Of a DNA stretch of 53,729 bases, positions 3,148 through 49,645 are shown piece by piece. How positions within the stretch are numbered: position 1 is the stretch's first letter; every line of letters starts with the position of its first letter. The stretch covers positions 1 to 53,729 of the IMG/VR virus record IMGVR_UViG_3300036846_000650; one strand, given 5' to 3'. The notes beneath the pieces were generated by a model, which saw nothing but the letters and a program-made list of their open reading frames with translations, was not told the origin of the DNA and ran no database searches. This DNA is from a virus (taxonomy: Duplodnaviria; Caudoviricetes). The position numbers and the translations under genes were made by a program.

Positions 3148-3794
3148 GCGAGACCAACACCTCTGCTACCGGCGGCTACATCATCGACCGCCCGCCGGTC
3201 CCGCCTACCGGTACGCAGATCACCGCGGCGCTTCAGCAGATGGTGGCGCAGCTTGCCGATCTGCCGGGGACACTGGTGAGGCCACGCTGGCAGCCGGTGC
3301 CACCCACACAGCCCAGCGCGGACACCACCTGGGCCGCTGTGGGGGTGACGATGACCGAAGTGGACGAATACCCCTACATCATCCACGACCCCACCACGAC
3401 GCTGCCAGGGCAGCCCAATCCCGGTGTCGATCGGATGACGCGGTGGTCCACGCTTACCGTGATGGTGAGCTTCTACGGGCCGGAGGCGGACGACTGCGCG
3501 GCGCGCTTCCGGGACGCCTTCTATGTCGGGCAAAACTGGGAGCCGCTGTCGGCGCTCGGGCTGAAGATGTACTCGGTGCATGACCTCGTGCGCGCGGCCG
3601 AAATCATCAATCAGCAATTCATCGACCGGTTCGACTTGCGGATGGAGCTTCGTCAGCAGATCGATCGGGTGTATCCGATCTTCGACATCGCCGCAGCGAA
3701 TGTTGGCGTGGATGGTGGCGACAACGCCGATGGCAGCGAGGGCGTCACGCGGGTCATCCAGGTGGACGAAGGCACGATCATCTGGGAGCCCTAG
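3144..3794 (+). CDS. Tail/neck terminator protein
   Basis: NTSATGGY start, LVRPRWQP and VSFYGP motifs; precedes the sheath gene. Confidence 0.8.
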   Translation: MSETNTSATGGYIIDRPPVPPTGTQITAALQQMVAQLADLPGTLVRPRWQPVPPTQPSADTTWAAVGVTMTEVDEYPYIIHDPTTTLPGQPNPGVDRMTRWSTLTVMVSFYGPEADDCAARFRDAFYVGQNWEPLSALGLKMYSVHDLVRAAEIINQQFIDRFDLRMELRQQIDRVYPIFDIAAANVGVDGGDNADGSEGVTRVIQVDEGTIIWEP

Positions 3795-4066: not shown

Positions 4067-4541
4067 GGAAGAACTCCCCGAAATGCCGTTGAGCGGCCTG
4101 GATATAGGCGGCGCGTGCCTCAGCGACTGTATCGAATACACCTATGAATTTGCGTTTCCTGTTTAGGTAGATCGCAGTCTGGAATTTATCCCGACACCGT
4201 TGAACACCTTTCGGAAGGTCATGATTACGGCGGCGTCGGCTGTTCTGACTGTTCTGGGCCTTAGTGGCTTCGCGCAGATTGGTCCAGCGGTTGTTAAAAT
4301 GATCACCATCGTGATGGTCAATTAAGCCGGTCGGATCACGGCCTGTCGCGATTTTCCAGATGATCCGCGACGCTTTGTAAAGGACACGGTCAAGGCGGAC
4401 TAAGACGCCAACTTTCTCGGCCGGGCAGCCCGCTACCTTTCCGGCGAATTGTCCACAACGCCAACGCAGTAAGCCGGTTTCCGGCTCATAGGCAAAACTC
4501 CGTCGCAGATAGTCCGCTTCGGGCAATGGCTTCGCGCGCAT
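4056..4541 (-). CDS. HNH homing endonuclease with AP2-like C-terminal domain
   Basis: YEPETGLLRW, IDHHDGDHFNNRWTNLREAT..QN, GV, IGVFDTVAEARAAY...HFGEF. Confidence 0.92.
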   Translation of the reverse strand: MRAKPLPEADYLRRSFAYEPETGLLRWRCGQFAGKVAGCPAEKVGVLVRLDRVLYKASRIIWKIATGRDPTGLIDHHDGDHFNNRWTNLREATKAQNSQNSRRRRNHDLPKGVQRCRDKFQTAIYLNRKRKFIGVFDTVAEARAAYIQAAQRHFGEFFRAG

Positions 4542-4570
4542 CCCGTAGTCTAACACCAAGGAGAAAAGCC

Positions 4571-7021
4571 GTGCCAGGATTGAGTGTAAGCGATGTAGTT
4601 AACGTCACCATCAACATGAGCCCGCTGGCGGTGCCACTGCGCAATTTCGGCGCGCAGCTATTCGCCGGTCCGTCGGCGGTGATCGATGTCAAGGAGCGGC
4701 TGCGGGAATATACCACGCTGGATCAGGTGGTGTCGGATTTCGGCACCGCCGCGCCGGAATATCTGGCGGCTGATTTGTTTTTCTCGCAGAGCCCGCAGCC
4801 CAGCATCTGCTACATCGGCCGGTTCGCGCAGACCGCCTCCAGCGCGGTGCTGCACGGCAGGATATTCAGCACCGCTGGCTCCGCGGCGCTGATCCGCCAG
4901 ATGCAGCAGATCACCAACGGCTCGATGCGGATCACGGTGGACGGCACGGTCCGCACCGCTTCGGCGGTGGCGGCCTACCTGAACGGCGGGGTGTTCTCGG
5001 CCGGCAATCAGGCCCCGCTGCTCACCACGCTGCAAGCGATCCTTGATGGTGCCTTCGGCATAACGATCGATGGCACGGCGCGGCAGATCAATCGCACGGC
5101 CGGGGTGATCGTCGGCGGGGCTACCGCTTCGGCCGATCAGGGGGCTCTGCTGACCAGCTTGCAGGCGATCACCGACGGCGGCTTTGCCATGACCATCGAT
5201 GGCACGTTGCGGCAGGTAGGCCCGATCGACTTCACCACCGCGGTCAATCTGGTGTCGTGCGCGGCGCTGATCGACGGCGAGCTTGGCTCCTGGGGCGACT
5301 GCAAGTGGGACGCCACCAATGGCACCTTTATCATCAGTTCGGCGACCTCGGGCGTTGCCTCGACGGTCACCTACGCCTCCGCGCCGCTCGCCGGCACCGA
5401 CATTTCGACCATCCTCCTGATGACTTCGGCCTCCGGGGCGGGTGCGCCGGTGGCGGGTGCCGCGGCCGGGATCGACTTCGCGGCGACGCAGTCGCTCGCC
5501 GACTGCGCGGCGCTGATCAACGTGGCGATGGCGGGCTGGGGTGGCTGCACTTGGGATGGGGTGATCGGCCGTTTCATCCTGACCTCGGCGACCACGGGGG
5601 CCGCTTCCACGATCACCTATGCGACCCCTCCGGGCACCGTGATCACCACCACCACCACCGCCGCGGTTGTCGCTGGGGACACAGTGATCCCGGTCGCGTC
5701 GGCTACCGGCATGGCAAACGGGATGGCGATTTCCGGCACAGGCATTCCGGCCGGCACGGTGATCAACACAATTGCCGGGCTCAATATCACGATCTCGAAT
5801 GCGACCACCGGCAGCGGCGTGGCGAACGGTGCGACGATCACGGTCACCTCCGCTGGGGCTGGCACCGACCTGTCGGCTCCACTGCAACTCACCTCGGCGA
5901 CCGGGGCGACTGCGCCAGTTGCGGGCAGCACCGGGATGAACTTCGCCGCGATCACCAACTTGAACGGCGCAGCCAGCATCATCCAGGCGGCGCTGCCCGG
6001 CGCATCGGTGGAATGGGACGGCACTCGCTTCCATATTTCCAGCCTCTCGGCCGGGCCCAACTCGACGCTGAGCTACGCGTCATCGGCGGGCACCGGGCAG
6101 GACATCTCGCTGATGACCGGCCTGTCGCAGGCGGGCGGGGCCACTCCACCGGTGAACGGGGTGAGTGCGGAGAGCCCGCTGCAAGCGGCGGCGGCGCTGC
6201 GCGCGCATCCGGAATGGTATGGGATGCAATTTGCGGTCACCACCGACATCTCGATCGATGACTACGTGGCGGTGGCGCAGTTCATCGAGGGGTGCTCGCC
6301 GTCCAGCATCTTTGGCTACACCACGATGGACACTGCGGCGCTCGATCCGACCAGCACCACCGACCTCGCGGCGACGCTGAAATCCTACACCCTGGAGCGC
6401 ACCTACGGGCAGTACAGCAGCAGTTCGCCGTATGCCAGCGCGAGCCTTGTGGCCAGGGCGTTCACCGTGGACTTCGAGGCCAACAACACCACCATCACCT
6501 TGAAGTTCAAACAGGAGCCGGGCGTCCAGGGCGAGCAGTTGACCGAGAGTCAGGCGGCGGCACTCAAGGGCAAGAACTGCAACGTGTTTGTCTACTACAG
6601 CAATGACGCTGCGATCATCCAGGAAGGGGTGATGTGCAACGGATTTTTCTTCGATGAGGTGCACGGGACGGACTGGCAAGCCAACAGGATACAGACCGAT
6701 CTGTTCAACGTGCTGTATCAGTCACCGACGAAAATTCCCCAAACAAATCCAGGCATCCACATCCTGGTGACCACGGTCACCGCGTCACTCAATCAGGGCG
6801 TGGTGAATGGGCTGATCGCACCGGGGCAGTGGAATGCGCCCGGTTTCGGCCAGTTGAAGCAGGGGCAGATACTACCGGACGGCTTCTATGTCTGGGCTCC
6901 GCTGGTGGAGAGCCAGCCGCAGGCAATCCGCGAGCAACGGATCGCACCGACCATCCAAGCCGCGATCAAGCTCGCGGGTGCGGTGCACAAGGCCAACGTC
7001 ATCGTCAACGTTAATCGCTAA
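4571..7021 (+). CDS. Contractile tail sheath protein (DUF3383 type), expanded to 816 aa
   Basis: AAGGAG SD then GTG at 4571; GLSVSDVVNV, FFSQSPQP, TITLKFKQEPG, KIPQT and LAGAVH motifs. Confidence 0.92.
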   Translation: MPGLSVSDVVNVTINMSPLAVPLRNFGAQLFAGPSAVIDVKERLREYTTLDQVVSDFGTAAPEYLAADLFFSQSPQPSICYIGRFAQTASSAVLHGRIFSTAGSAALIRQMQQITNGSMRITVDGTVRTASAVAAYLNGGVFSAGNQAPLLTTLQAILDGAFGITIDGTARQINRTAGVIVGGATASADQGALLTSLQAITDGGFAMTIDGTLRQVGPIDFTTAVNLVSCAALIDGELGSWGDCKWDATNGTFIISSATSGVASTVTYASAPLAGTDISTILLMTSASGAGAPVAGAAAGIDFAATQSLADCAALINVAMAGWGGCTWDGVIGRFILTSATTGAASTITYATPPGTVITTTTTAAVVAGDTVIPVASATGMANGMAISGTGIPAGTVINTIAGLNITISNATTGSGVANGATITVTSAGAGTDLSAPLQLTSATGATAPVAGSTGMNFAAITNLNGAASIIQAALPGASVEWDGTRFHISSLSAGPNSTLSYASSAGTGQDISLMTGLSQAGGATPPVNGVSAESPLQAAAALRAHPEWYGMQFAVTTDISIDDYVAVAQFIEGCSPSSIFGYTTMDTAALDPTSTTDLAATLKSYTLERTYGQYSSSSPYASASLVARAFTVDFEANNTTITLKFKQEPGVQGEQLTESQAAALKGKNCNVFVYYSNDAAIIQEGVMCNGFFFDEVHGTDWQANRIQTDLFNVLYQSPTKIPQTNPGIHILVTTVTASLNQGVVNGLIAPGQWNAPGFGQLKQGQILPDGFYVWAPLVESQPQAIREQRIAPTIQAAIKLAGAVHKANVIVNVNR

Positions 7022-38881: not shown

Positions 38882-40717
38882 ATGAAAATCCGCATCACCG
38901 GTCGGTTCGACATCACGGTGGAGGTGCCCATGGGAAAGCCGCCAGAGCCGCCCGGCCAGGGCGGGACACCTCCGGGGCACGGCGGGACGCCTCCCGGACA
39001 GCAGCCCGAGCCGCCCGATCCCGGCATCCCGACGCCACCGGACCGACCACAGCCCATCCCACCCGAGCCACCCGACATCGAGGAGCCGCCGCCGGACATC
39101 GAGATCGAGCCGCCGCCTGTCGGGAGTATGCAGGCGCTCGTGATGCTCAGCGGCGTGAACTACGTGTTCAACGAGGCGGACGCGATCGACATCGGCTCCT
39201 ACGTGCACCCACACGGGCGCTTCACCATGGCCTGCCGGCGCGGCACCCTGCCGTCCTGCCCGCTACGGGTGGACTTCCGGCGCATCGATGGCTGGCAGTG
39301 CATCATCTTCGAGACCGGCGACCCGATGGCACCGGAGCCGCTCAATCTGCCGCCGTATGAGGTGCAGATCGTGGACGACGCCGGGGCGTTTCATCCGGTC
39401 CAGGTGCCCGACCAGTGGGCCTACAGCCGGTGGCGCTGGCAGTCCGGCAAGTGGCCGCTGGAGCTTCTCACGGTGGAGGACCTGACCACCGAAGGGCTGG
39501 TGCCCAACTACGACGCGGACATGACCGGCGGCACCGCCCATCCGCTGCCGCTGGCGACCTACGAGCCGATGGGCCTCGCCGGGCTCACCGCCAACATGCC
39601 CAACACGGGTGGCCGTTCGGATATCGGTCTATTCACGGATTGGGGTGGCGAATATCTCTGCACCCAGTCGGAGACCGCGCTGGCCTCGGTGCTGGCGCAG
39701 GCGGAGGCAGGCGGGACGATCCCGTGGATGATGCGGGACCTGGGCACCGGCGCGCCGCTCGATCTCATGAACGATTGGAAGTACGCGACAATCTATTGGG
39801 ACCCGAGCGCCAATCCCTACATTCCGAGCGCCAAGGACACCGGCATCTCGATCGACACCTCGCACCAGCCGGCGCTGGCTTATCTGCCGCTCCTGCTGAC
39901 CGGCGATCCGTATCACCTGGAGACGCTCCAATGTCAGGCGAATTTCGCCTTCCTGGAGACGCCGCGGAATTGGAATGAGGGTCAGGTCTGGCAATGCCCG
40001 GGAACTGGCCAGACTCGCAGTATGGCGTGGAACATCAGGACAATAGGGTCCGCGCTTGCGATGACACCGGAGGAGGTGCCGTCCTGGCTGTTGCCCAAAG
40101 CGGTGCTGCACCAGATGCTGGCGCAGTGCGTCAAGGGCACCAATGCCATCATGCAGGAAGGCGGGAACAATCGGACGGTCCTGCACGCGATCGACGTGGG
40201 CCTGCCGGGCGGCGACGAAGGTGCACCGGGCGGCTATTACCCCTCCAATTGCTACAGCCGTTGCTGGCAGACCAGTTTTTTCGCGCAAGCGGTCGGATGG
40301 CTCGCGCAGCTTCACCGGGAATTGGCACCGTTGGCCGGCTATATCGCGAAAAACATGATCGCGCGCGCCGACGGGCTGCACTGGGACAGCACCTATCCGG
40401 CTCCCTACGCCCTGCTGTTGCGGCCGGCCTACGAGGCTGATTGGTTCGATAGCTGGCAGGTGTGCTGGGAGTCCAACGCGGCCATCCTGGGCGTGCCTGC
40501 GGCCCCGCTGTCCAATCAGCTTAAGGCGGTGGGGGACTACGAAGGCGGCTTCTACGGCGGCCTCGCAGCCCTAGCACAGGGGCACGCCGCTGGGGTGTCG
40601 GATATCCCCGCCGAGATCAACGCGGCGCTCGATCATTACAGCGGGCAGGTGGCTGCGCTACTGGCCACCGGCGGGAATAATTATCTCACCTGGAATAACG
40701 CCATCGCGCTGCCCTAG
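38882..40717 (+). CDS. Large hypothetical protein: Pro-rich linker plus probable alpha/alpha-barrel enzyme-like domain
   Basis: MPNTGGRSDIG, DTSHQPALAYLP.LLTGD.YHLE.LQ and QTRSMAW motifs; start 38864 or 38882. Confidence 0.7.
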   Translation: MKIRITGRFDITVEVPMGKPPEPPGQGGTPPGHGGTPPGQQPEPPDPGIPTPPDRPQPIPPEPPDIEEPPPDIEIEPPPVGSMQALVMLSGVNYVFNEADAIDIGSYVHPHGRFTMACRRGTLPSCPLRVDFRRIDGWQCIIFETGDPMAPEPLNLPPYEVQIVDDAGAFHPVQVPDQWAYSRWRWQSGKWPLELLTVEDLTTEGLVPNYDADMTGGTAHPLPLATYEPMGLAGLTANMPNTGGRSDIGLFTDWGGEYLCTQSETALASVLAQAEAGGTIPWMMRDLGTGAPLDLMNDWKYATIYWDPSANPYIPSAKDTGISIDTSHQPALAYLPLLLTGDPYHLETLQCQANFAFLETPRNWNEGQVWQCPGTGQTRSMAWNIRTIGSALAMTPEEVPSWLLPKAVLHQMLAQCVKGTNAIMQEGGNNRTVLHAIDVGLPGGDEGAPGGYYPSNCYSRCWQTSFFAQAVGWLAQLHRELAPLAGYIAKNMIARADGLHWDSTYPAPYALLLRPAYEADWFDSWQVCWESNAAILGVPAAPLSNQLKAVGDYEGGFYGGLAALAQGHAAGVSDIPAEINAALDHYSGQVAALLATGGNNYLTWNNAIALP

Positions 40718-40851
40718 AGCATCGCGCGGATCGCCACCATGACGCCACCGGCGATGATGCCCAGGATACCGACGATCACCAGCACCGCGACCGCGGTGAC
40801 CATCGCATATTGCCGGCGGTTAAGCTTCGGCTCTCTGGTGTCCGGGATCAC
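40714..40851 (-). CDS. 45-aa single-TM peptide
   Basis: GTGA overlap with the DUF968-like stop; long hydrophobic helix. Confidence 0.45.
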   Translation of the reverse strand: MIPDTREPKLNRRQYAMVTAVAVLVIVGILGIIAGGVMVAIRAML

Positions 40852-41144
40852 AGGAAGTACTTCGCGGTGTCATCGCCGATGGCCGGCGAGGTCTGGGCCA
40901 GGAGTCGGGCGATGCCGGTGAGGTCGAGCTTGTAGTGCGCCTCGAAGGTCATCCAGCCCATGAGGTGGCCCTCGGAGTGATGCTCCGAGCACAGCGGCAC
41001 TGCCCACCGGTCACTGGGCTTCATCCCGGTGCCGGCGACGCTGGCGGAGCGGACGTGGTGGGCGTGGACGCCGATCGCGACGTGGCAGCCCGGCACGCAG
41101 CAGGGCAGCGACCTGACCCAGCGCAGGTGAGCCGGCGACTTCAT
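40848..41144 (-). CDS. DUF968-like Zn/His (HNH-related) protein
   Basis: HLRWVRSLPCCVPGC, HAHH and GMKPSD..AVPLC..HH motifs. Confidence 0.85.
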   Translation of the reverse strand: MKSPAHLRWVRSLPCCVPGCHVAIGVHAHHVRSASVAGTGMKPSDRWAVPLCSEHHSEGHLMGWMTFEAHYKLDLTGIARLLAQTSPAIGDDTAKYFL

Positions 41145-41611
41145 GGGCCGCACTCAATGGTCCGGTCACCGGAGAATGGCGCTACCCGAGTCTCGCACTC
41201 GCGGGTCTTGCCGTCCTGGGTGGTGATCACGGTGTGGCTGCCGCGGTCGAACGGGTTGGCGTAGTTGCGCCCGCTGAAGGGTTTGCCGTCGGTGCCGACG
41301 CCCTCGAAGCTGTAGCCGCGATCGAACGGGTTCTGCCGGGTCGTCACAGACTGGGCCTGTGCGCAGCCCAGGAGCGCGCCCAGGAGCGACAAGAACAGGA
41401 TGGCTAGTAGCACGCGGCCGGTGAAGCTGAGCCGTCCACGGGGCTCCTGGGCCGTCTGCGGGCCGATCTCGATCTGGATGCGGATACGCTGCCGGCGCGG
41501 TGGCTCCGGCGGCTTGGGCGGCGGCAGGATGTCGGCCTCCGGGCTGATCGCCAGCGGGCCTAGCAGGTAGTCGAAGGAGCCGCGCTGGGGCGGCTTGCGG
41601 GTGTCGATCAT
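41141..41611 (-). CDS. Membrane-anchored hypothetical protein
   Basis: TM segment ending LLGC; NPFDRG repeated twice. Confidence 0.6.
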   Translation of the reverse strand: MIDTRKPPQRGSFDYLLGPLAISPEADILPPPKPPEPPRRQRIRIQIEIGPQTAQEPRGRLSFTGRVLLAILFLSLLGALLGCAQAQSVTTRQNPFDRGYSFEGVGTDGKPFSGRNYANPFDRGSHTVITTQDGKTRECETRVAPFSGDRTIECGP

Positions 41612-41970
41612 CAGCGGTCTCCATCAAATGGGATGTCGGCGGGCACGGCCGGCTGCGCAGCCGGATACCGGCCCCAGCGCATCATGGTGGTCCACACCTC
41701 CGAATAGGCATCGTGGCGGTCGTCCTCCAGCACGCTGTCCTTGAAGTTGGGATAATCGATCCGATCCACTTCCGCGGCCATGGCGCGCTTCACCAGCTTG
41801 CGCCCGACATAGGCGCGGAATTGGTAGTCGCGTTGTGGCGTGGCGGTCACCCGGATGCCGGGGAACACCGTCAGGATATCGGCCTCACGCCGGGCGCGCA
41901 CCAGCAGCAGGTTGCGGCGCTTCGGCAATTGCACGATCGACAGGAAAGCGTCGTTAATAAATACCCACAT
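41611..41970 (-). CDS. Conserved phage hypothetical protein
   Basis: MWVF...FLSIV, LLVRAR, DYQFRA and IDYPNFK motifs. Confidence 0.8.
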   Translation of the reverse strand: MWVFINDAFLSIVQLPKRRNLLLVRARREADILTVFPGIRVTATPQRDYQFRAYVGRKLVKRAMAAEVDRIDYPNFKDSVLEDDRHDAYSEVWTTMMRWGRYPAAQPAVPADIPFDGDR

Positions 41971-42117
41971 TTATTCGTCCTCGTCGTCAAATAGGGAAGC
42001 TGAATCGGGATCGGCCTCACGCTCGCAGCACGGGCAGAACGAGGTGCGCGGCGTGTCGAGCGTCTCGTCCCATTCGTTCGGGCATTCCTCGCAGTAGAAG
42101 GTGTAAGTGCGGGGCAT
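41971..42117 (-). CDS. 48-aa Zn-ribbon protein
   Basis: MPRTYTFYCEEC...CPCC; abuts both neighbours. Confidence 0.6.
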   Translation of the reverse strand: MPRTYTFYCEECPNEWDETLDTPRTSFCPCCEREADPDSASLFDDEDE

Positions 42118-42118
42118 C

Positions 42119-42310
42119 TCAGCGCTCCTGCACGGTGAAGGTGAACACCACCTTGGAATTCGGTCGGTTCATCGAGCCGTTGAGCGCCGCGGCCTCCCAT
42201 TCGGCGGTGGCCTTGTCGGTCCACATCTGGATGGTGCCATCCTTCTTGAGCCATGCCGCACGGGAGCCAGTCCGCCCGCCGGAGACTTCGCACCAGATGC
42301 TGTAGATCAT
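42119..42310 (-). CDS. Hypothetical protein
   Basis: AAGGAG SD; IWCEVSGGRTGSRAAWLK. Confidence 0.65.
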   Translation of the reverse strand: MIYSIWCEVSGGRTGSRAAWLKKDGTIQMWTDKATAEWEAAALNGSMNRPNSKVVFTFTVQER

Positions 42311-42474
42311 CACTCGGTCTCCTTCAGGGCTTTGGCCATCCAGGCCGCCCAGACGGCGGTAGCGGCATCCTCGCGGGCCTGTGGCAGATCGCGCAGGACA
42401 GCCGCGTAGGCGCGCTGTGCGTCCTCGTGAGCCGCCTTGCGGATGGTCTGGGGGGAGCGGGCGGAGACGATCAC
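42310..42474 (-). CDS. Hypothetical protein (54 aa)
   Basis: GTGA and TGATG coupling at its two ends. Confidence 0.5.
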   Translation of the reverse strand: MIVSARSPQTIRKAAHEDAQRAYAAVLRDLPQAREDAATAVWAAWMAKALKETE

Positions 42475-42671
42475 AGCACCACCGCCCGGCCCAGGCGGGC
42501 CATGGTGAGCCCGGACAGCACGCCCAGGATGCCAAACGCGGTGGCGATGGCGAGCACCGGCACCGGCGCGGGATCGATCAGGAAGGAGCCGATCGCGCAG
42601 TCGATGGCGGCGACGAAGAAAGCGATAATCCCGAAGTAGATCGGGGTCAGGATTTTTTCGGAGAGTTTCAT
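42471..42671 (-). CDS. Two-TM small membrane protein
   Basis: First gene after a leader-hairpin promoter; two hydrophobic segments. Confidence 0.6.
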   Translation of the reverse strand: MKLSEKILTPIYFGIIAFFVAAIDCAIGSFLIDPAPVPVLAIATAFGILGVLSGLTMARLGRAVVL

Positions 42672-42687
42672 CGGGGAGTTTCCAAAT

Positions 42688-42763
42688 TCGCCAGAGCGGA
42701 ATTGCCCCGGCGACACCTGGAAATATATTCAGGACGGTCGATTAAATCAAGCGAAAAATACGC
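42688..42763 (-). promoter_or_regulatory. Early promoter plus CAAUUCCG leader hairpin, copy 1
   Basis: TTGATT-17-TATATT; stem TCGCCGGGG/CTCTGGCGA. Confidence 0.75.
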
Positions 42764-42776
42764 AAACAGCGAATTT

Positions 42777-43391
42777 TCACGATGGCCGGATTATCTCCTG
42801 TTGCTTGAATAGCCCGGCGGCTTCCAGACGCGCGCGCAGGGCCACCCGCTCCTCCTCCGGCAATATCCGGTCCGGCAGGATATCGTGCATCCGGCCTCTG
42901 CCCACGCCTGAGTCAAAGGGCTTGATGCTGGCCGGCTTGCCGTTGGCACCACGGACGATCTCACCGGTGGTGATGTCGGCGTGCCGCTCGCCGGTCGCAT
43001 CGTCCAGCCATGTGGTCTGCACGGCCACGATCTCGATCCGATCCTCAGCTTCGGCTGTCGGCACGGCCACGATCCTGGCCTCTTTTTCGGCTTTGGTCTC
43101 GCCGGGGATCGGGTGGATACTGCGCATCCAGGCTTCGCCGATGAAGGTGAGGCAGTTGGCTCCCATGGCGAGGCAGAGCAATTTCACCGCATTCATGGTG
43201 TTGGCCTTCTCGTGGTCATTCTGCCACGTGGCGGGCACGATATTGATGGCGGTGGCGTTGCGCAGCACGAACATCGACACGACCGTGCCATCGGTCAGGA
43301 TCATCTGCTTGGCAAACTCGAAATCGAATCTGATCTGCTTGGCATAATCGAGCTTGCCATCCTTGCCGGTGGCGGTGTGGGGCTTGCGCAT
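42777..43391 (-). CDS. Hypothetical protein
   Basis: AAGGA SD; FIGEAW...EDRIEIV pattern. Confidence 0.7.
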   Translation of the reverse strand: MRKPHTATGKDGKLDYAKQIRFDFEFAKQMILTDGTVVSMFVLRNATAINIVPATWQNDHEKANTMNAVKLLCLAMGANCLTFIGEAWMRSIHPIPGETKAEKEARIVAVPTAEAEDRIEIVAVQTTWLDDATGERHADITTGEIVRGANGKPASIKPFDSGVGRGRMHDILPDRILPEEERVALRARLEAAGLFKQQEIIRPS

Positions 43392-43404
43392 CAGGAAATT
43401 CCTT

Positions 43405-44061
43405 TCAATACCAAGTGCGGACCGCGGCGACCATGTAATCCTGGCCTTTATCCGCGGGGTCATCCTTGACGGTGAACGCCTCCACGGTGCCGTGCCAGTG
43501 GCCATCCGAGATCGGGGTGGGAATACTGAAGCGGCTGTTCGCCGCCAGCTTCTGAATCAGATCGGGGTGGTCGCTGATCGCCTTCATGTCGCGCAGCAGC
43601 GCCTCCTCGGTCCGGTCGCGGCCACGATCGAGCCGGCGGGCCAGGGCGTGGTAGTTGAAATTCACCAGTGGCGCGCTCTCGATCTTCAGCCCGATGTTGC
43701 GGCGGCCGATCCGCACCGTGTGCATGGCGACGGTCAGGTCCTGCTCCTCCCATTCCGCCCGAAACTGGGTGCCGGCGGACAGCCGCACCTCGCGGAGTTC
43801 GATCCCGCCCGGGAGCTTCGTGGTAGTGCCGGCCCAGCGGAATTCCAGGGCGGAGGCATGGTAGGATGCGAGCAGCGCCTGGATGTGCGCCGGGCGGAGG
43901 CTGCGGCCTGGATAGCGGTCCCATCGCGCGGAGGCGACTTCTATTGCCCCCTCGGTGATCTCCCGCCAGCGGTTGCCGTCGGCCATCACGCGTTGGCGCA
44001 GGGCGCGCACCCGGCCGAGCGACTCCCGGGTGATCGGGGCGCTCTCGAAGTAATCGTTCAC
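43405..44061 (-). CDS. Hypothetical protein
   Basis: HALARRLDRG...AVRTW; GTGA-coupled. Confidence 0.7.
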   Translation of the reverse strand: MNDYFESAPITRESLGRVRALRQRVMADGNRWREITEGAIEVASARWDRYPGRSLRPAHIQALLASYHASALEFRWAGTTTKLPGGIELREVRLSAGTQFRAEWEEQDLTVAMHTVRIGRRNIGLKIESAPLVNFNYHALARRLDRGRDRTEEALLRDMKAISDHPDLIQKLAANSRFSIPTPISDGHWHGTVEAFTVKDDPADKGQDYMVAAVRTWY

Positions 44062-44300
44062 GGCCGCTCCTCCCGGCGCTGGCGCGGGCCACTGTCCTTC
44101 GAGCCCCTAGGACGGCCTCGGGGCCGCGGTGGGCCCTCTGGCGGCGTCCGGGTAGGTGGTAGGCCGTCCAGCTTGGCCAGGGCGCGTACGTGCCTCACAA
44201 GGGCATATGCGCCGTGCCGCCAGATCAGCCGGCGCAGCGTCCGGGTGGTCTCGGTGGAGAGCCCCGGGATCGGTGGCTTCCAGCCCGCTCGCAACGCCAT
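44058..44300 (-). CDS. Small AT-hook protein
   Basis: AAGGAG SD; RPRGRPRGSKD. Confidence 0.6.
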   Translation of the reverse strand: MALRAGWKPPIPGLSTETTRTLRRLIWRHGAYALVRHVRALAKLDGLPPTRTPPEGPPRPRGRPRGSKDSGPRQRREERP

Positions 44301-44312
44301 GGGAAGTCTCCT

Positions 44313-44453
44313 TTAAGCCGGTGGCAGCCGCTTGGCGGTCACCACGATTTCTGGAATGTCCTGTTGCGGCGGGAGGGAGTATTCCCAAGAGAGGAATACC
44401 CCAGCGCCGACAAGCAGGTGCAGGATCAGCGAGATCAGGGCCAGCTTGGCCAT
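44313..44453 (-). CDS. 46-aa TonB/TolA-N-terminus-like mini-protein
   Basis: TGATG-coupled; MAKLALISLILHLLVGAGVFLSWEYSLPPQQDIPEIVVTAKRLPPA. Confidence 0.55.
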   Translation of the reverse strand: MAKLALISLILHLLVGAGVFLSWEYSLPPQQDIPEIVVTAKRLPPA

Positions 44454-45094
44454 CACGCCACCCCCTCGCAGGAGAGGGCGGCGGTGGTCTTGGCACCCCA
44501 GGGTAGTCCGAAGTGCTCAGCGCAGTCCGGGCCATACCCGACGGCCTTGCTGTCCGGGTGGGTCAGTTCCTTCTGGCAGAAGCAGCAGTGATGGGTGGCG
44601 ACGCCGTAGGCTGCCGCGGTGCCGGCCGGGTCGTTGGCCAGCACGGCGAGGAGCCCGGCCACCGCAAGCTGGGTGGCATGGTCCACCTTGCCCGACACCT
44701 GCCACGCGCCGTCCGGGCTGACGCGGCCATACCAGACGTTGGAGCCAAACTTGCCGCCGTCGGTGACGTTCACCGTGCCCGGCTGCTTGGCCTTCTCGCC
44801 CGCGAGCGACAGCACGATCTTGCGGCCATCGTTGAGCTTCAGGGCGATCTTGGGGAATGCCTTGTGCTGCTTGGCGGCGGCGAATAGCGCGATGACGCCA
44901 GCGAAGTTGCCCACCTCGACCGCGGGAGCGGCTGCCGGCGCGGTGCCGGTGGCGCGCTGCGCCAGCTTCATGATCCAATACATCTGCTTCTCGGAGGGAT
45001 GGCTGGCCGACAGCAGGGAGTGGGCGAAAGCCTGATCCTTGGCGGGCAGGCTGGCGAGGTTTTCGGTGAGGGTGATGATCGGGTTGATTTCCAT
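44453..45094 (-). CDS. DUF6011-type Zn-binding protein
   Basis: CCFCQKELT.PDS..VGYGPDCA motif. Confidence 0.82.
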   Translation of the reverse strand: MEINPIITLTENLASLPAKDQAFAHSLLSASHPSEKQMYWIMKLAQRATGTAPAAAPAVEVGNFAGVIALFAAAKQHKAFPKIALKLNDGRKIVLSLAGEKAKQPGTVNVTDGGKFGSNVWYGRVSPDGAWQVSGKVDHATQLAVAGLLAVLANDPAGTAAAYGVATHHCCFCQKELTHPDSKAVGYGPDCAEHFGLPWGAKTTAALSCEGVA

Positions 45095-45114
45095 CGGGGT
45101 GGTTCCGTCTGAAG

Positions 45115-45190
45115 GGCCCGAGCGGAATTGCTCCGGCCACGACGAAAATATACGCATTTCGGGTATTTTTCGCAAGGGAAAAAATACACC
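45115..45190 (-). promoter_or_regulatory. Early promoter plus CAAUUCCG leader hairpin, copy 2
   Basis: TTGCGA-17-TATATT; stem GGCCGGAG/CTCGGGCC. Confidence 0.75.
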
Positions 45191-45210
45191 AAATCTGAAT
45201 TATTTTAATT

Positions 45211-45515
45211 CGGCTGGTGGTAGCGTTTCAGCGCATTCCACCTAACGCCAGCCGTTGGCGACCCCTCCGGGGTCCGGTGCTGTTTTACCGGTAGCTGACC
45301 GGCTTCGCTTCATCGGGTGCAGCCCGACTAGCCGGGAGCGACCCCGGCACGTCTGAATAAGGGAGGGCGGCCAGCCTTACCCGTACCGTTTTAAGCCCAC
45401 CTAGGGATTGCCCCTTGTCCAGCCCGGCCATGAATGATCACAGGGGTGACCGGGAGGTGGGGAGGCTGGCCATGTCGCGTTGTGCCCTCGTCAACTGTGA
45501 AACCGGTGGGACCCC
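45211..45515 (-). ncRNA. Candidate structured non-coding RNA
   Basis: About 300 nt with no credible ORF and at least nine stems, including a multibranch domain. Confidence 0.5.
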
Positions 45516-46634
45516 CTATGCTGCCACGAGCGCCCGGCCGTTGGCGGTAGCGATCTCCGTCCACTGGCTCCTGGATAGGTCGATGATCTCGCCGCCCATG
45601 CGCTCGAATTCACTGGCGCGGTCATAGGACGACAGGTCCTCCGCCGTCCGCGTCACCGCGTTGTACAAGCCGTAGCGTGTCAGATCGCCACCCTCGATCA
45701 AGTTCTTCAGGACGGAGGAGCGCTCGCCCTCGTTCATCTCAAACTTGCGGGCGGTCAGTTCCACCACCTTGACCACGTCGGCCTCGATCGGCTGGCTGGC
45801 GGTGTCGGCGATCTTCTTGACCCGGGCCTCGAAGGCGGCCTCGTTGAAGGCACCGCGGACCACGTCGCGCACCTGCATCCAGATCGCCTTGTCGGTCTGG
45901 CGGCGGGTCTCGTCGGACAGCAACTCGCGGATATTGTCCACCACTGAGGAGAGATCGTGACGGGCCCCCAGGTGGCGCTTCTTCATGCCTTGGTCGGCAA
46001 ACACCGCGAGGTTGGTGCACGCCCTGGTCCAGACGCCGGACTCTACCGACAGCATACCAACGCCGACTTCTGAGTTGCTGATGATGACCGCGGGGGCGCA
46101 GGTGTCGAAGATGGTGTGGCTGCCGTCGCCCATGCGGCGGCCCGACGGGATGTCGAGATTGATGCTCTGGTCCACGCACTTGATGTAGAGCCGGCGTTCG
46201 GTGATCTGTGCGGAGACGACTTCGAGCCGAAGGTCCATCAGCACCGGCAGCACGGCCTCCGCCAGTTCGACATTCTCCAGCGGGCGGTAGCCGTCGGACA
46301 GGAAGGCGCGCATCCGGCCGTCCATGGTGCGGACCATCCGCTTGGCGCTGGGGTCCTGGGCCATCCAGGCGTTGACGTTCTGGGCCAGGAGGTCGGGCAT
46401 CTTGGCCAGCATCCGGTCGTAGTATTTGCCCGGAATGTTGGTGAAGGTGCCGATCTGGTCATGGGCCAGACTGTTGATGCCGAATTGTGTCTCATGGCCG
46501 ACGCGCATGGCCACGCCGCCATCGCCGTCGTTCATCATGGTGAGTGCCTTAACGGGCGCGATCAGATCGTGCTTGGCGTTGGCCTGCCGCTCGATCTCGC
46601 GGGCGAGGTCCTGGAGGGAGAGTCCGGTCTTCAT
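45516..46634 (-). CDS. DUF932-family protein
   Basis: RAFLSDGYRPLEN, ISNSEVG.G and RACTNL motifs; AAGGAG SD. Confidence 0.85.
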   Translation of the reverse strand: MKTGLSLQDLAREIERQANAKHDLIAPVKALTMMNDGDGGVAMRVGHETQFGINSLAHDQIGTFTNIPGKYYDRMLAKMPDLLAQNVNAWMAQDPSAKRMVRTMDGRMRAFLSDGYRPLENVELAEAVLPVLMDLRLEVVSAQITERRLYIKCVDQSINLDIPSGRRMGDGSHTIFDTCAPAVIISNSEVGVGMLSVESGVWTRACTNLAVFADQGMKKRHLGARHDLSSVVDNIRELLSDETRRQTDKAIWMQVRDVVRGAFNEAAFEARVKKIADTASQPIEADVVKVVELTARKFEMNEGERSSVLKNLIEGGDLTRYGLYNAVTRTAEDLSSYDRASEFERMGGEIIDLSRSQWTEIATANGRALVAA

Positions 46635-46671
46635 AGGGGAAATGCTCCTTGGGGTGCAGTGTGCTGGTCGT

Positions 46672-46755
46672 CCGAGCGGAATTGCCCGGGCCGGAAATAA
46701 ATAGGGCTTTGCGAATTAAATGTCCATGGAAAAATACCGCTACCGGGTATTTTCC
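46672..46755 (-). promoter_or_regulatory. Early promoter plus CAAUUCCG leader hairpin, copy 3, with upstream palindrome
   Basis: TGGACA-17-TATTTA; stem CCGGG/CTCGG; GGAAAATACC-N7-GGTATTTTTCC. Confidence 0.7.
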
Positions 46756-46970
46756 TTGGATTTCCTCCGGCCTCGACCTGGAGCCTCTGGCACCAGCCAT
46801 GGCCAGCCCGAGCGCCGGGCGCAGTCCATGCACAGCCGTCGCTCCGGGCCGCCCGACAGCACGAAGACCGTGGCTGGACGCCGCGGGTGCCGTTCACAGC
46901 GCAATGACGTTGGGCTTCCGGTGGTAACGTGCACGAGAGCACTATGCGCGTGCACGTGCAGAATGGTCAC
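46740..46970 (-). CDS. Small Zn-finger-like hypothetical protein
   Basis: CERH...CMDC. Confidence 0.4.
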   Translation of the reverse strand: MTILHVHAHSALVHVTTGSPTSLRCERHPRRPATVFVLSGGPERRLCMDCARRSGWPWLVPEAPGRGRRKSKENTR

Positions 46971-46972
46971 AT

Positions 46973-47002
46973 AGAAAAGGGGCGGACCCTGCGGCCCGCC
47001 CC
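46973..47002 (-). terminator. Rho-independent terminator
   Basis: Minus strand GGGGCGGGCC-GCAG-GGTCCGCCCC then TTTTCT; adjacent 12-bp tandem repeat GCCCCCGTCTCA x2. Confidence 0.75.
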
Positions 47003-47018
47003 CGTCTCAGCCCCCGTC

Positions 47019-47264
47019 TCAGCCCTCGTACACCAGCCCGTCCACCACCTCGAAGGCTTCCACCACGGCGAAGCCGCCGCCATCGGTGAAGGTGATCCGA
47101 GTGCCCGGCGCGTTGTTCCGGCGCGGGTAGTAGCAGCGGATCGCCTCCACGTTGACCGCGCACGGGGTGGAGGTGATGCCCGCCGGGCCCTCGCCCTCCT
47201 CGTTGTCGTTGTACATGTCCCGCCGACGATCGGCGGTGATCTTCTTCAGGATGACACGTCGCAT
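47019..47264 (-). CDS. Hypothetical protein
   Basis: AGGAG SD; AVNVEAI...GTRITF...VVEAFEVV. Confidence 0.7.
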   Translation of the reverse strand: MRRVILKKITADRRRDMYNDNEEGEGPAGITSTPCAVNVEAIRCYYPRRNNAPGTRITFTDGGGFAVVEAFEVVDGLVYEG

Positions 47265-47297
47265 AGTCAGGTACTCCTAAAAAGCCAGCGTAATTTC

Positions 47298-47825
47298 TTA
47301 GCCGGTCGCTGGCATGGCCGGCATCTCCGGGTAGGCCGCGAGTGTCGGCCGCCCCTTCCTGCGGTGGCGTTGGCGCTCCACGTAAGTCGGGCTCTTGTCG
47401 TCCCATGAGTCGCGGACCGCCTCGTTCAGTCCCTTGTGGGCTGCCTTCGGCATCCGGTGGTCCCGGTAGCCCTGCTTGATCACCCGCAGGTAATAGTCGC
47501 TGGGCGGCATGATCCCGGTGGAGTTCATGACGTAGATCAGCATCTCGGTTTCGCCCATCGGGGTGCGCTTGATCTGGATGTATTCCTTGCGATACAGCCC
47601 GGAGCCGATCCCCTCATAGATGTCCAGCGCCACCTCGCAGGTTGGCGTGATCCGCCACACCCCGCCGTAGCAGATTGCGCCGGGCTCCTGGATGACATCG
47701 GCCACGCCGCGGAAGACCAGCCGCCAGTTGGCCAGCCGCATCCGCCCGAGCGGCTCCGCGTCCGGGCAGCGCTTCGCCATCTGTTCGACATTCAGGTTGC
47801 TGCCGTAGGCAAACATCAGCGCCAT
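47298..47825 (-). CDS. Gamma-glutamylcyclotransferase (GGCT/AIG2-like)
   Basis: FAYGSNL...QM..RCP, LD.YEG...Y and PS..Y..VI..GY motifs. Confidence 0.92.
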   Translation of the reverse strand: MALMFAYGSNLNVEQMAKRCPDAEPLGRMRLANWRLVFRGVADVIQEPGAICYGGVWRITPTCEVALDIYEGIGSGLYRKEYIQIKRTPMGETEMLIYVMNSTGIMPPSDYYLRVIKQGYRDHRMPKAAHKGLNEAVRDSWDDKSPTYVERQRHRRKGRPTLAAYPEMPAMPATG

Positions 47826-48265
47826 CACACGACTCCTTCATTGCCGTAGGCGGTCATGCCCAGCGCCAGTGCGGCGCACGCCAGTCCGATGTAGTGGGGA
47901 ATACGCTGGCCTGTCTCCCAGCCTGCCAGGGAGTTTCTGGAGCAGCCCAGCATCTTGGCAGCCTCAGCCTGCGAGTAGCCCATCCGTTCCCGCCACACGA
48001 TCAGCGTAGGCCCGTCCAGGGCCGCGTTGGGCCGGGTCGGGCTTGGCTTCTCAGGGGGCGTGATGGCCACCTCGCCGGGGCTGTCGTTGTCCAGATCGAT
48101 CGCGATGTGACGGAAGGCGCGCACTCCGTGGCGGGAAACTTCCGCCCGCTCAGCAAAGCCAAGGGTGCGGAAGATCGCGCAAAGCTGGGCCTCGTTCATG
48201 CCGGTGTGCCATGCCATGCGGCCAAGATCGGCCGCGGCTTCTGTGGTGAGGGTTTGTGTATTCAT
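47825..48265 (-). CDS. XRE-family HTH protein
   Basis: WRERMGYSQAEAAKMLGCSRNSLAGWETG..IP..I.LAC.AL. Confidence 0.85.
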   Translation of the reverse strand: MNTQTLTTEAAADLGRMAWHTGMNEAQLCAIFRTLGFAERAEVSRHGVRAFRHIAIDLDNDSPGEVAITPPEKPSPTRPNAALDGPTLIVWRERMGYSQAEAAKMLGCSRNSLAGWETGQRIPHYIGLACAALALGMTAYGNEGVV

Positions 48266-48318
48266 TTGAGCCGGTTCCTTTCGTGTTGGAGCATATATGC
48301 GCTGATGCCTGCCCTAAT

Positions 48319-49344
48319 TCAAGCAGCCATCGCCATTGAGCTAGAAAGATGCGCCGTCCGGGCCGTGAAGAAGGCCCGTTCGGCATCGTCAAGGCCGAGC
48401 TTGCCAAACAGCCCTTCGAGGCTGGCTGGAGCTTCGGTGGAGGCAGCCGCGGCCTGGGCGAAGTACCTCACGACGCGGCCGGTCCGCTGGGTGGTGTAGG
48501 CCAGCCCGCACTCGCGAGCCCGCTGCGGCAGGGAGATCGACGGCCAGCCGGTGGCTGCGCACGCCTCCTCGCGGGTCACGCCCTCAGTGCGGAGCATCAG
48601 TTGCCCGACAAGGTGGCCCTTGCTGCCCAGGCGGGCGCGGTTGATTGCTCCGCCGCCGGTAGCGATGCCGTTGCCGGACTTGGCTGCCCATACCAGCTTG
48701 AGGCAGAGCAGTATCCAGTTGCGCACCTTGGCGTTGTCCAGCGTGCCCTGATGCTGGCGGAATTCAACGGTCTGGTGGGCGCGGTAGGCACAGAGGTTGA
48801 GCTTGGTATAGCGTGCCGTGTGGCCTGGGGGCGTCAGTGCCCGGATGAGCCCCTCCACGCTGTCCGTCCGATCGATGGTGCGGAAGGGGACGTTGGTCAC
48901 CGAGCGGCAGTAGGACGCAGCGCTGGCGCGCCGTGACGCCGCCATGAAGCGGTCGATCACCGGCTCGAAGTGCGCGTAGAGCTTCAGCAGGTTGCGGAAA
49001 AACGCTATGTTGCCGTTGCCGTGGCCGACGCCGACATGGACGTGGGTCCCGCACAGCTTGGACACCGTGCAGCCCATGTCATTGAGGAGCGCCAGCACCG
49101 TGGCGACCGTCTCCAGGCCGGCCTCGCCTTGCAGGACGGGAGAGACGAATTCCGCCCCGCGGGCGTAATCGTTGAGCGAGCCGTCAGTGACGATCTTCCA
49201 CCATGTGCGGGTTTGGTGGTTGTAGCTCTCGGGCCGGCAGTCGATGCCCTGATTGGTGAGCGCCATCGCCGCCGCGCCATGGGAAAGGCCGACGGGGAGG
49301 TAGACTTCAAACTCCACGCCGAAGGTTTGGTCGAGGTAGGCCAT
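48319..49344 (-). CDS. Putative amidoligase (Amidoligase_2) with DUF3489-like insert
   Basis: TFGVEFE, WKIVTDGSL, EFVSPVL, CGTHVHVG, RY.KLN and TVEFRQHQGT motifs. Confidence 0.92.
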   Translation of the reverse strand: MAYLDQTFGVEFEVYLPVGLSHGAAAMALTNQGIDCRPESYNHQTRTWWKIVTDGSLNDYARGAEFVSPVLQGEAGLETVATVLALLNDMGCTVSKLCGTHVHVGVGHGNGNIAFFRNLLKLYAHFEPVIDRFMAASRRASAASYCRSVTNVPFRTIDRTDSVEGLIRALTPPGHTARYTKLNLCAYRAHQTVEFRQHQGTLDNAKVRNWILLCLKLVWAAKSGNGIATGGGAINRARLGSKGHLVGQLMLRTEGVTREEACAATGWPSISLPQRARECGLAYTTQRTGRVVRYFAQAAAASTEAPASLEGLFGKLGLDDAERAFFTARTAHLSSSMAMAA

Positions 49345-49382
49345 CTGTCGAAGCTCCATGTGGTGGATCAGTGTGCGGCACA

Positions 49383-49429
49383 AATATGCGCAATCACCAC
49401 GGGATAGTCAAGCACTAATTTGCGCAATC
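49383..49429 (-). promoter_or_regulatory. Early promoter with GATTGCGCA direct repeats
   Basis: TTGACT-17-CATATT; GATTGCGCA(A/T)ATT upstream of the -35 and overlapping the -10. Confidence 0.65.
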
Positions 49430-49486
49430 TGGAATTTTCTGCACGAATTTACGCTGGGCGGCTGATGTAAGCTGGATTACATCTGG

Positions 49487-49645
49487 ATGTGACCGGATTT
49501 CAGGCCGGTTTGGAGTGCACACCCCAAAGTCGCCCTGGCAATTGCCATGTGACCGGATCGGCCCGAATCCCCGGACAAACTTTCTTACCCTCTGTCGGGG
49601 GTTTCCCAGCTTCAACTGGTTTAAGCTGCCATGTGACCGGATCGG
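49487..49645 (+). repeat. Direct repeats upstream of terS (candidate pac/terminase sites)
   Basis: ATGTGACCGGAT x3; TGCCATGTGACCGGATCGG exact at 49543 and 49627. Confidence 0.7.

Follow-up and report, generated by a model that had tools for sequence, protein, structure and literature searches.

Known leader hairpins and promoter cassettes

Regulatory hairpins near the 5′ end of a message are known from several systems. The boxB hairpin of phage lambda has a 5-nt, purine-rich, GNRA-like loop and makes up the nut site together with boxA, and the put site of phage HK022 consists of two adjacent stem-loops of ~70 nt, which act on RNA polymerase. 5′-terminal stabilisers, such as the leader of E. 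coli ompA, need no particular loop. Translational operators, in which a hairpin with a sequence-specific loop lies 5′ of the ribosome site, are represented by T4 gene 43 and by the coat-protein operators of RNA phages. The radC RNA motif is a 5′ untranslated region (UTR) element found before radC and other DNA-related genes of mobile elements. The subject here is a set of hairpins with an AAUUCC loop, three of which stand in the 5′ leaders of minus-strand genes in IMG/VR virus record IMGVR_UViG_3300036846_000650, a 53.7-kb stretch that was analysed over its whole length (hereafter, the window). With a probability of roughly one half, they would be strand-specific leader hairpins that act on translation initiation or mRNA stability and are probably read by a trans-acting partner. 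Among the elements to be compared, the radC motif is listed as RF01754 in a table of Weinberg et al. (2010, PMC2864571), and promoter-early stem-loop (PeSL) cassettes belong to T4-type phages (Arbiol et al. 2010, PMC2839356; Comeau et al. 2014, PMC4122927).

Three hairpins with one loop in a phage genome

The motif GCAATTCCGCTC has exactly three exact matches in the window, all on the minus strand (42694-42705, 45120-45131, and 46674-46685). As the chance expectation is 0.03 and three copies were reached in 0 of 100 dinucleotide-preserving shuffles, the claim of a threefold minus-strand motif, made in a sequence-only reading of this DNA, is confirmed. Allowing up to two mismatches yielded 11 matches for 7.3 expected, which is not above chance; therefore, only the exact copies count. 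The same reading had described the conserved part as a CAAUUCCG loop. Conservation of the loop holds, but its extent does not, since the C and G of that string pair with each other, and the loop is therefore a hexaloop, AAUUCC, closed by a C-G pair and then a G-C pair. Each hairpin is thus composed of a variable outer stem, a G-C/C-G clamp, and the AAUUCC hexaloop (Table 1). The outer stems, said to differ in sequence and still pair, do so: the quoted stems are present and are folded by RNAfold, and the differences between copies are two-sided, with C-G versus G-U at one pair and G-C versus C-G at another. RNAfold analysis of 30-nt segments gave -11.6, -16.3, and -18.4 kcal/mol for the minus strand (z = -1.1, -2.7, and -3.9) and -10.2, -15.1, and -10.6 kcal/mol for the plus strand of the same sites. 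The sense (minus) strand folds better because three pairs are G·U, and this asymmetry supports the proposal of a cis-acting RNA element, in the sense of a structured, strand-specific signal in the 5′ leaders. The hairpin common to the three leaders is single and spans 18-26 nt. It ends ~37 nt upstream of the ATG of a DUF932-like gene (hairpin 1), 20 nt upstream of that of a DUF6011 gene (hairpin 2), and 16 nt upstream of that of an open reading frame (ORF) for a 66-aa membrane protein (hairpin 3).

A sigma70-like -10 box with a 17-bp spacer had been placed upstream of each copy. The promoters of copies 2 and 3 (P2 and P3) are called by a promoter scan, and that of copy 1 (P1) is a weaker match recognized by eye only. 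The GCAATTCCGCTC copies lie 12-16 nt past the -10 box, with the stems starting 8-9 nt past it; judged from the -10 positions, transcription is predicted to begin 0-3 nt upstream of the hairpin. A single cassette of ~100 nt is present in three copies, in which the promoter and hairpin are joined by an operator-like palindrome on one side and by a ribosome site with a CCCC(G/U)AUG start on the other. Over ~99 nt, the cassette pairs are identical at 66/90, 70/90, and 64/97 aligned positions, with alignment scores far above those of shuffles, and the 14-nt hairpin core, identical at 13-14 of 14 positions, is better kept than the surrounding cassette.

This arrangement is reminiscent of PeSL cassettes. 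Like the PeSLs (PMC2839356 and PMC4122927), the window cassettes are repeated intergenic units of ~100 bp that extend from an upstream stop to a downstream ATG; both combine a sigma70-like promoter with AT-rich DNA on its upstream side, a stem-loop, and a ribosome site, and both head small accessory or early genes. The PeSL stem-loop, however, terminates or attenuates transcription arriving from upstream and is placed inside or ahead of the promoter, whereas the hairpin of the window lies after the -10 box, in the predicted transcript. PeSLs are defined by the stem (G run, loop, and C run), whereas here the loop and clamp are conserved, and the window hairpins have no U-run, stand in a phage that is not T4-like, and share their loop with unrelated elements. 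The hairpins, at 8 nt or more past the -10 box, were not called by a terminator scan. PeSLs further sit in the hyperplastic regions of T4-type myoviruses, which is not the setting found here; that the phage is not T4-like is our reading of its gene set and ~54-kb extent, made without a T4 core-gene screen.

The same clamp and loop in other phage-like contigs

Investigations of IMG/VR revealed the exact 16-mer CGGGCAATTCCGCCCG at 101 loci, with 105 matches in 56 context clusters, 55 of which have enough flank for testing. A control 16-mer, CGGGCATCTACGCCCG, in which the loop is replaced by ATCTAC of the same composition, occurs at 48 loci in 32 clusters (31 testable). A ribosome site and start codon 15-25 nt downstream accompany CGGGCAATTCCGCCCG in 27 of 55 clusters, compared with 3 of 31 for the control (Fisher p = 3e-4), and the same test in the opposite orientation of CGGGCAATTCCGCCCG succeeded in 2 of 55. 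The upstream 55 nt are at least 10 points more AT-rich than the contig in 16/55 clusters (control, 0/31), and the stem is longer by at least two pairs in 22/55 (control, 4/31). Intergenic position was judged by distance, AT-excess, and orientation, as the criterion of "no long open frame" failed in GC-rich DNA. An ORF lies within 70 nt after CGGGCAATTCCGCCCG in 84 of the 105 matches. The downstream ORFs fall into 43 families in an all-against-all BLASTP comparison, some of which look by eye like RadC-, DUF932-, DUF2958-, and DUF2786-type proteins, and the GC content of the contigs ranges from 0.40 to 0.72. A T-run follows the hairpin in 7 of the 56 clusters, in AT-richer contigs.

A second scan combined the promoter with the core. 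Among the matches listed, TATATT-N6-22-GCAATTCCGC gave 108 unique contexts, including 19 with a stem of at least 5 bp and 8 with one of at least 7 bp; with the reversed loop, the matches listed gave 76 unique contexts, of which 5 and 0, respectively, reached these lengths. The long-stem cases show promoter, hairpin, ribosome site, and gene in this order, with one family preceding a protein that is SSB-like by eye. One 222-kb IMG/VR phage record contains two AAUUCC hairpins with different stems (loci L377 and L382), each only 1-3 nt after TATATT; the DNA inverted repeat would thus extend in part upstream of the predicted start. One of the two has a T-run after it.

In a 65% GC IMG/VR contig (L511), a leader of ~160 nt is repeated at 84% identity (4380-4620 and 5165-5400, minus strand). 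The copies precede a RadC-like protein, identified by eye, and the next gene, and both end in GGTTCCGGGCAATTCCGCCCG, followed by a ribosome site and ATG. The position of this cluster of AAUUCC hairpins before a RadC-like protein recalls the radC motif; however, the radC model gave no match up to E = 10 on the 2 kb around the L511 copies, and the long leader matches no Rfam family. The search of Rfam that the sequence-only reading had suggested was likewise negative: no Rfam 15 family reaches its gathering score in the window, the only match on 42400-47100 up to E = 5 is a chance miRNA match, and 12 other hairpin-bearing loci gave no match at gathering score. In BLAST searches of phage and plasmid collections, four cassettes from other contigs had no match. 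Literature text searches on the AAUUCC loop hairpin, DUF932, and the radC motif found no description. Although many leaders contain hairpins, the recurrence of one clamp and loop ahead of dozens of unrelated genes, in phage-like contigs that are themselves unrelated, has not been described.

Two further patterns were encountered in these scans. Another exact 16-mer, GRGCAATTCCGCTCKG, occurs in IMG/VR at 79 loci with one match each, in mixed contexts (coding, terminator-like, and a few leaders), and in one copy in each of five whole records checked. It is near the chance level by rough arithmetic and is therefore not used as support. GCAATYMYGC occurs 161 and 149 times in G021 and G022, the metagenome-assembled genomes (MAGs) behind loci L257 and L258, against 10 and 14 times backwards, and this excess probably reflects codon or dinucleotide bias in GC-rich coding DNA.

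Leaders of DUF932-like genes in related phages

An alignment of 40 DUF932-like proteins was used to fetch 80 IMG/VR and 80 metagenome loci, which yielded 151 leaders, 132 of them unique. In many of these leaders, which come from related soil phages, a promoter is followed by a hairpin and then by the ribosome site and ATG. Two loci carry the AAUUCC loop with its clamp on other stems, namely CGATGGC/GCCATCG in L104 and CCGGC/GCCGG in L225, and the L225 hairpin directly follows a TTTACA..TCTAAT promoter. Related loops, mostly GC-clamped, are AAUCAC, AAUUUC, ACUUCC, ACUUUC, AGUUUC, AAUCCC, and GAUCCC. When the hairpin class is defined, post hoc, by a loop that starts with A or GA and ends with C, with a pyrimidine-rich 3′ side, 30 of the 132 leaders contain it, compared with 5.0 ± 2.1 in shuffles and 12 in the reverse complement. 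Without constraint on the loop, GC-A....C-GC accounts for 17 of 109 leader hairpins with a 6-nt loop versus 51 of 8615 elsewhere in the same loci. In a tree of 133 DUF932-like proteins, the proteins of the window, L104, and L225 fall in different clades, and the six nearest relatives of the window protein, all rows of its clade, carry other leaders; therefore, the type of hairpin does not simply follow the descent of the gene. Covariance models, as recommended in the sequence-only reading, were built (R1 and R2) and searched over 72 and 100 sources, but recovered mainly their own training rows; the information in a short hairpin is too small.

One related locus, L112, has three consecutive genes, each of which follows a stop, a variable hairpin, a GC-clamped hairpin, and a ribosome site (3248-3275, 4418-4445, and 4963-4990). 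The clamped hairpins are GAAGC-GATCCC-GCTTC twice and GCGGC-AATCAC-GCCGC once. In this arrangement, the element goes with start regions and not with promoters, which bears on the idea that the hairpin is a boxB/nut- or put-like signal in nascent RNA, which would load an antitermination factor or modify RNA polymerase. A short promoter-proximal RNA hairpin with a sequence-specific loop, present once per early transcription unit and near the promoter, does resemble nut and put sites. Nut sites go with an N-like, arginine-rich RNA-binding protein encoded nearby, and a small arginine-rich ORF lies within unit 2 (44058-44300); this ORF has no family match, and its motif looks more AT-hook-like. A few unrelated IMG/VR copies are followed by a UCUUAAC-like sequence, faintly like boxA. 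However, AAUUCC is a pyrimidine-rich hexaloop instead of a purine pentaloop, there is one stem only, nothing boxA-like is common to the three leaders, and no conservation is seen between the hairpin and the ribosome site, while the upstream side of the hairpin is taken up directly by the promoter. A simple scan finds no minus-strand intrinsic-terminator-like site between 46.7 and 40.7 kb, and the only two such minus-strand sites in the scanned 36-50 kb are 47003-46978, upstream of P1, and 37653-37639. The hairpin tracks start codons: in L112 it stands immediately ahead of the ribosome site of all three successive genes, and both relatives and other phage-like contigs hold it at a set distance from the start codon, not from terminators. 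The boxB/put-like antitermination role suggested by the sequence-only reading thus fails on loop type, boxA, second stem, and downstream intrinsic terminators, and it is highly improbable.

In L178, a close relative, a GGAGC-AAT-GCTCC palindrome lies between the -35 and -10 boxes, ~100 nt upstream of the DUF932-like gene; it resembles the inner stem of window hairpin 2, at a different place. Such a palindrome in a promoter is one of the points that would favor a double-stranded DNA operator or protein site over the transcription start, with the hairpin as a by-product. The conserved block, at about +1 to +25, lies where repressors classically bind, an AATT centre stands between GAGC..GCTC arms, and the phage encodes a helix-turn-helix (HTH) protein. 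Nevertheless, the arms vary and the centre is fixed, which is the reverse of a dimer operator, and the G·U pairs (G·T in the DNA) leave only one strand foldable. The spacing to the -10 box varies (12-16 nt here and about 9-21 nt elsewhere), whereas the orientation to the downstream gene is nearly constant (27 versus 2 of 55 clusters). A better operator candidate, the GAAAAT(A/T)C-N9-GTATTTTTC palindrome, sits upstream. A DNA site over the start is distinctly unlikely on these grounds.

Proposed action after the start of transcription

In the favored explanation, each site would be a compact regulatory cassette, in which an operator-like palindrome and a host sigma70-type promoter drive the message. 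The hairpin would form in RNA, at or a few bases from the 5′ end of the message as placed from the -10 boxes. It would belong to a widespread, so far undescribed class of leader hairpins, found in phages and further phage-like contigs, whose stem varies while the G-C/C-G clamp is invariant and the hexaloop follows A....C (AAUUCC here), and which typically end 15-25 nt ahead of the start codon. From this position, it would act after the initiation of transcription, either on the translation-initiation region or on the 5′-end-dependent decay of the first messages, and the clamp and loop would be read by a trans-acting partner (protein or RNA, host or phage) instead of forming just a structural plug. 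We infer the transcription start sites, the level of action, and the partner from what is observed of the sequence, fold, strand specificity, and conservation of the hairpin and of its position relative to start codons. That the clamp and loop stay exact while the stems change, and that they face one way ahead of unrelated genes in unrelated elements, argues that something reads the sequence.

Hairpin-type translational operators are close in design. They and the window cassettes share a small hairpin with a specific loop at a short fixed distance from the start, 5′ of the ribosome site (16, 20, and ~37 nt from hairpin to start here), and in both cases several genes per genome carry it in a regulon-like manner. 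For the AAUUCC hairpins, the binding protein is only postulated, and autogenous control cannot generally apply, because the genes that they precede are unrelated. Direct pairing of the loop with the ribosome-site region was considered and rejected, as the mean duplex energy of -2.18 compares with -2.36 ± 0.17 for swapped loops and -2.25 ± 0.25 for shuffled ones.

A purely structural 5′-terminal stem-loop, which would shield the message from 5′-end-dependent decay or insulate the ribosome site with no reader, is a possible, if rather unlikely, account. The clamp and loop would then be left over from cassettes that duplicated, recombined, and spread horizontally, as with PeSL cassettes, which are repeated sigma70 promoter and stem-loop units of ~100 bp (PMC2839356). 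The three sites can be aligned as cassettes from the operator through the start codon, and RecT-like and exonuclease proteins of the phage could drive exchange between repeats. The predicted starts leave 0-3 unpaired bases ahead of the stem, and many DUF932 leaders of relatives have promoter-proximal hairpins with quite different loops. The likeness to ompA-type stabilisers lies in a stable hairpin with almost no unpaired 5′ bases, as predicted here, and a ribosome site that is not occluded; the difference is a loop and clamp that do not vary within the genome and turn up again in unrelated elements. The purely structural account is at odds with a 14-nt core that stayed exact while its flanks drifted to ~70% identity. 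Moreover, the clamp and loop recur on unrelated stems, before 43 gene families and in contigs of 0.40-0.72 GC, and the control loop of the same composition shows no such leader contexts.

A bolder version of the reader hypothesis, speculative and unlikely, is that the GC-clamped AAUUCC hexaloop is a horizontally shared "first-message tag" of incoming mobile DNA that is read by a conserved host component. The reader would be the ribosome, RNA polymerase, or an RNase, and the tag would be carried by phages and perhaps by contigs that resemble conjugative elements. Its effect would be to favor the translation or stability of the earliest transcripts made once the DNA has entered. As a weak lead, AAUUCCG is complementary to CGGAAUU at 556-562 of E. 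coli 16S rRNA. CGGAATT occurs once in the E. coli rrsH locus, but at least one match was obtained in 39 of 200 shuffles, and the pairing is further weakened because variant loops would not pair; it is kept only as a lead.

Several findings weigh against a trans-acting reader and a common leader class. The loops vary among related phages (AAUCAC, ACUUUC, AGUUUC, AAUCCC, and others), and one universal partner is consequently not obvious. The hairpin class was defined after the fact, the nearest relatives of the DUF932-like protein carry other leaders, and the strong covariation counts in a 29-row leader alignment are circular, the ability to form a hairpin having been the criterion by which rows entered it. 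Each scan had one control loop, the IMG/VR contexts are not all independent, and GCAATTCCGC-like strings are common in GC-rich coding DNA. In the window, hairpin 1, ~37 nt from its start codon, falls outside the usual 15-25 nt. Much of the evidence could be accounted for, with no partner, by a plain 5′ stabiliser or insulator disseminated in cassette form, and the loop variety among related phages together with the cassette-like spread leaves room for a purely structural role.

Cassette components and gene neighborhood

The components of the three cassettes and the genes that they precede are listed in Table 1.

Table 1. Features of the leader-hairpin cassettes and associated genes (positions in the window).
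Feature	Position	Strand	Remarks
Promoter P1	46698..46726	-	TGGACA-17-TATTTA; weaker match by eye; not called by scan
Promoter P2	45147..45175	-	TTGCGA-17-TATATT; promoter scan
Promoter P3	42722..42750	-	TTGATT-17-TATATT; promoter scan
Leader hairpin 1	46669..46693	-	stem CCGGGC/GCUCGG plus two outer pairs; loop AAUUCC 46683-46678
Leader hairpin 2	45114..45140	-	stem GGCCGGAGC/GCUCGGGCC, one G·G mismatch; loop AAUUCC 45129-45124
Leader hairpin 3	42688..42713	-	10-bp stem UCGCCGGGGC/GCUCUGGCGA, two G·U pairs; loop AAUUCC 42703-42698
Operator-like palindrome GAAAATAC-N9-GTATTTTTC	46729..46754	-	abuts P1 -35
GTATTTTT(T/C) half-site pair, opposite arrangement	45163..45187	-	flanks P2 -35
Operator-like palindrome GAAAATTC-N9-GTATTTTTC	42753..42778	-	abuts P3 -35
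Start context CCCCTATG	46632..46639	-	DUF932-like gene
Start context CCCCGATG	45092..45099	-	DUF6011 gene
Start context CCCCGATG	42669..42676	-	66-aa ORF
DUF932-like gene	45516-46634	-	heads unit 1
DUF6011 gene	44453-45094	-	heads unit 2
66-aa membrane ORF	42471-42671	-	heads unit 3
HTH protein	47825-48265	-	member of amidoligase operon

The palindromes at P1 and P3 share the consensus GAAAAT(A/T)C-N9-GTATTTTTC. With up to one mismatch, GTATTTTTC occurs 15 times in the window against 2.0 expected, and the palindrome is a likely candidate site for the HTH protein. A GAAAATTC half-site is also carried by a hairpin-less promoter at 49.4 kb (about 49425-49455). The start context CCCC(G/T)ATG (CCCCKATG) occurs five times in the window for 7.6 expected, and three of the five are the starts of the hairpin-led genes; in leaders 2 and 3, pairing is possible between its C-run and the ribosome-site GG. 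The hairpin is present at only three of at least five sigma70-like minus-strand promoters, with none at ~49.4 kb or ~36.6 kb. A putative early regulon, as proposed in the sequence-only reading, would comprise the three hairpin-led units.

The record is an uncultured soil phage. The window is the whole IMG/VR record, with 64% GC and a CheckV completeness of 74%. PHROG matches identify a contractile-tailed phage (sheath, tape measure, baseplate, tail fibre, small and large terminase, and portal) and include a RecT-like protein with exonuclease and a primase/helicase. AT-rich DNA in this GC-rich genome is confined to promoters. The hairpins fall in a minus-strand block from 49.4 to 40.7 kb, and the units that they lead are headed by the DUF932-like gene, the DUF6011 gene, and the membrane ORF. 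Upstream of the cassettes, an operon on the minus strand (47298-49383) contains an amidoligase (Amidoligase_2), the HTH protein, and a gamma-glutamyl cyclotransferase-like protein. It is closed, ahead of the three units, by the terminator at 47003-46978, which is strong according to the terminator scan.

The arginine-rich ORF of unit 2 encodes 80 aa on the minus strand; a RPRGRPRGS stretch at its end resembles an AT-hook, and protein family scans gave no family match. Between the DUF932-like gene and P2, a 385-nt stretch (45131-45515) has no obvious gene. It was considered as a structured RNA and rejected, with a fold z of -1.2 and no Rfam match. The DUF932-like protein has a confident predicted model, with a predicted local distance difference test (pLDDT) score of 84 and a predicted template modeling (pTM) score of 0.80. 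A Foldseek search gave no match in PDB at E <= 0.001, and no significant sequence match was found among PDB structures; no candidate for a loop-binding protein emerged.

A single-protein scan found no close relatives of the phage, and none were found among isolated phages; a megablast search of 40700-49500 against isolated phages gave no match. Only two relatives were found among MAG contigs in a genome contig collection, one from Hyphomicrobiales and one from Sinobacteraceae.

Significance

In this phage, three co-regulated units are marked out by the hairpin, which combines with the upstream palindrome into a testable regulatory map. Many of the downstream genes (SSB-, RadC-, and DUF932-like by eye) are of kinds that would be expected among the earliest expressed once DNA has entered. 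Were the loop read by a factor of the host or of the element, it would represent a shared control point for the first genes of incoming DNA. Should the tag hypothesis be true, the AAUUCC hairpins would constitute a new class of cis-regulatory RNA with a reach comparable to that of nut sites but acting at translation. In addition, the hairpin may be handy as a sequence tag for early or leading genes in metagenomes and as a compact part for expression design.

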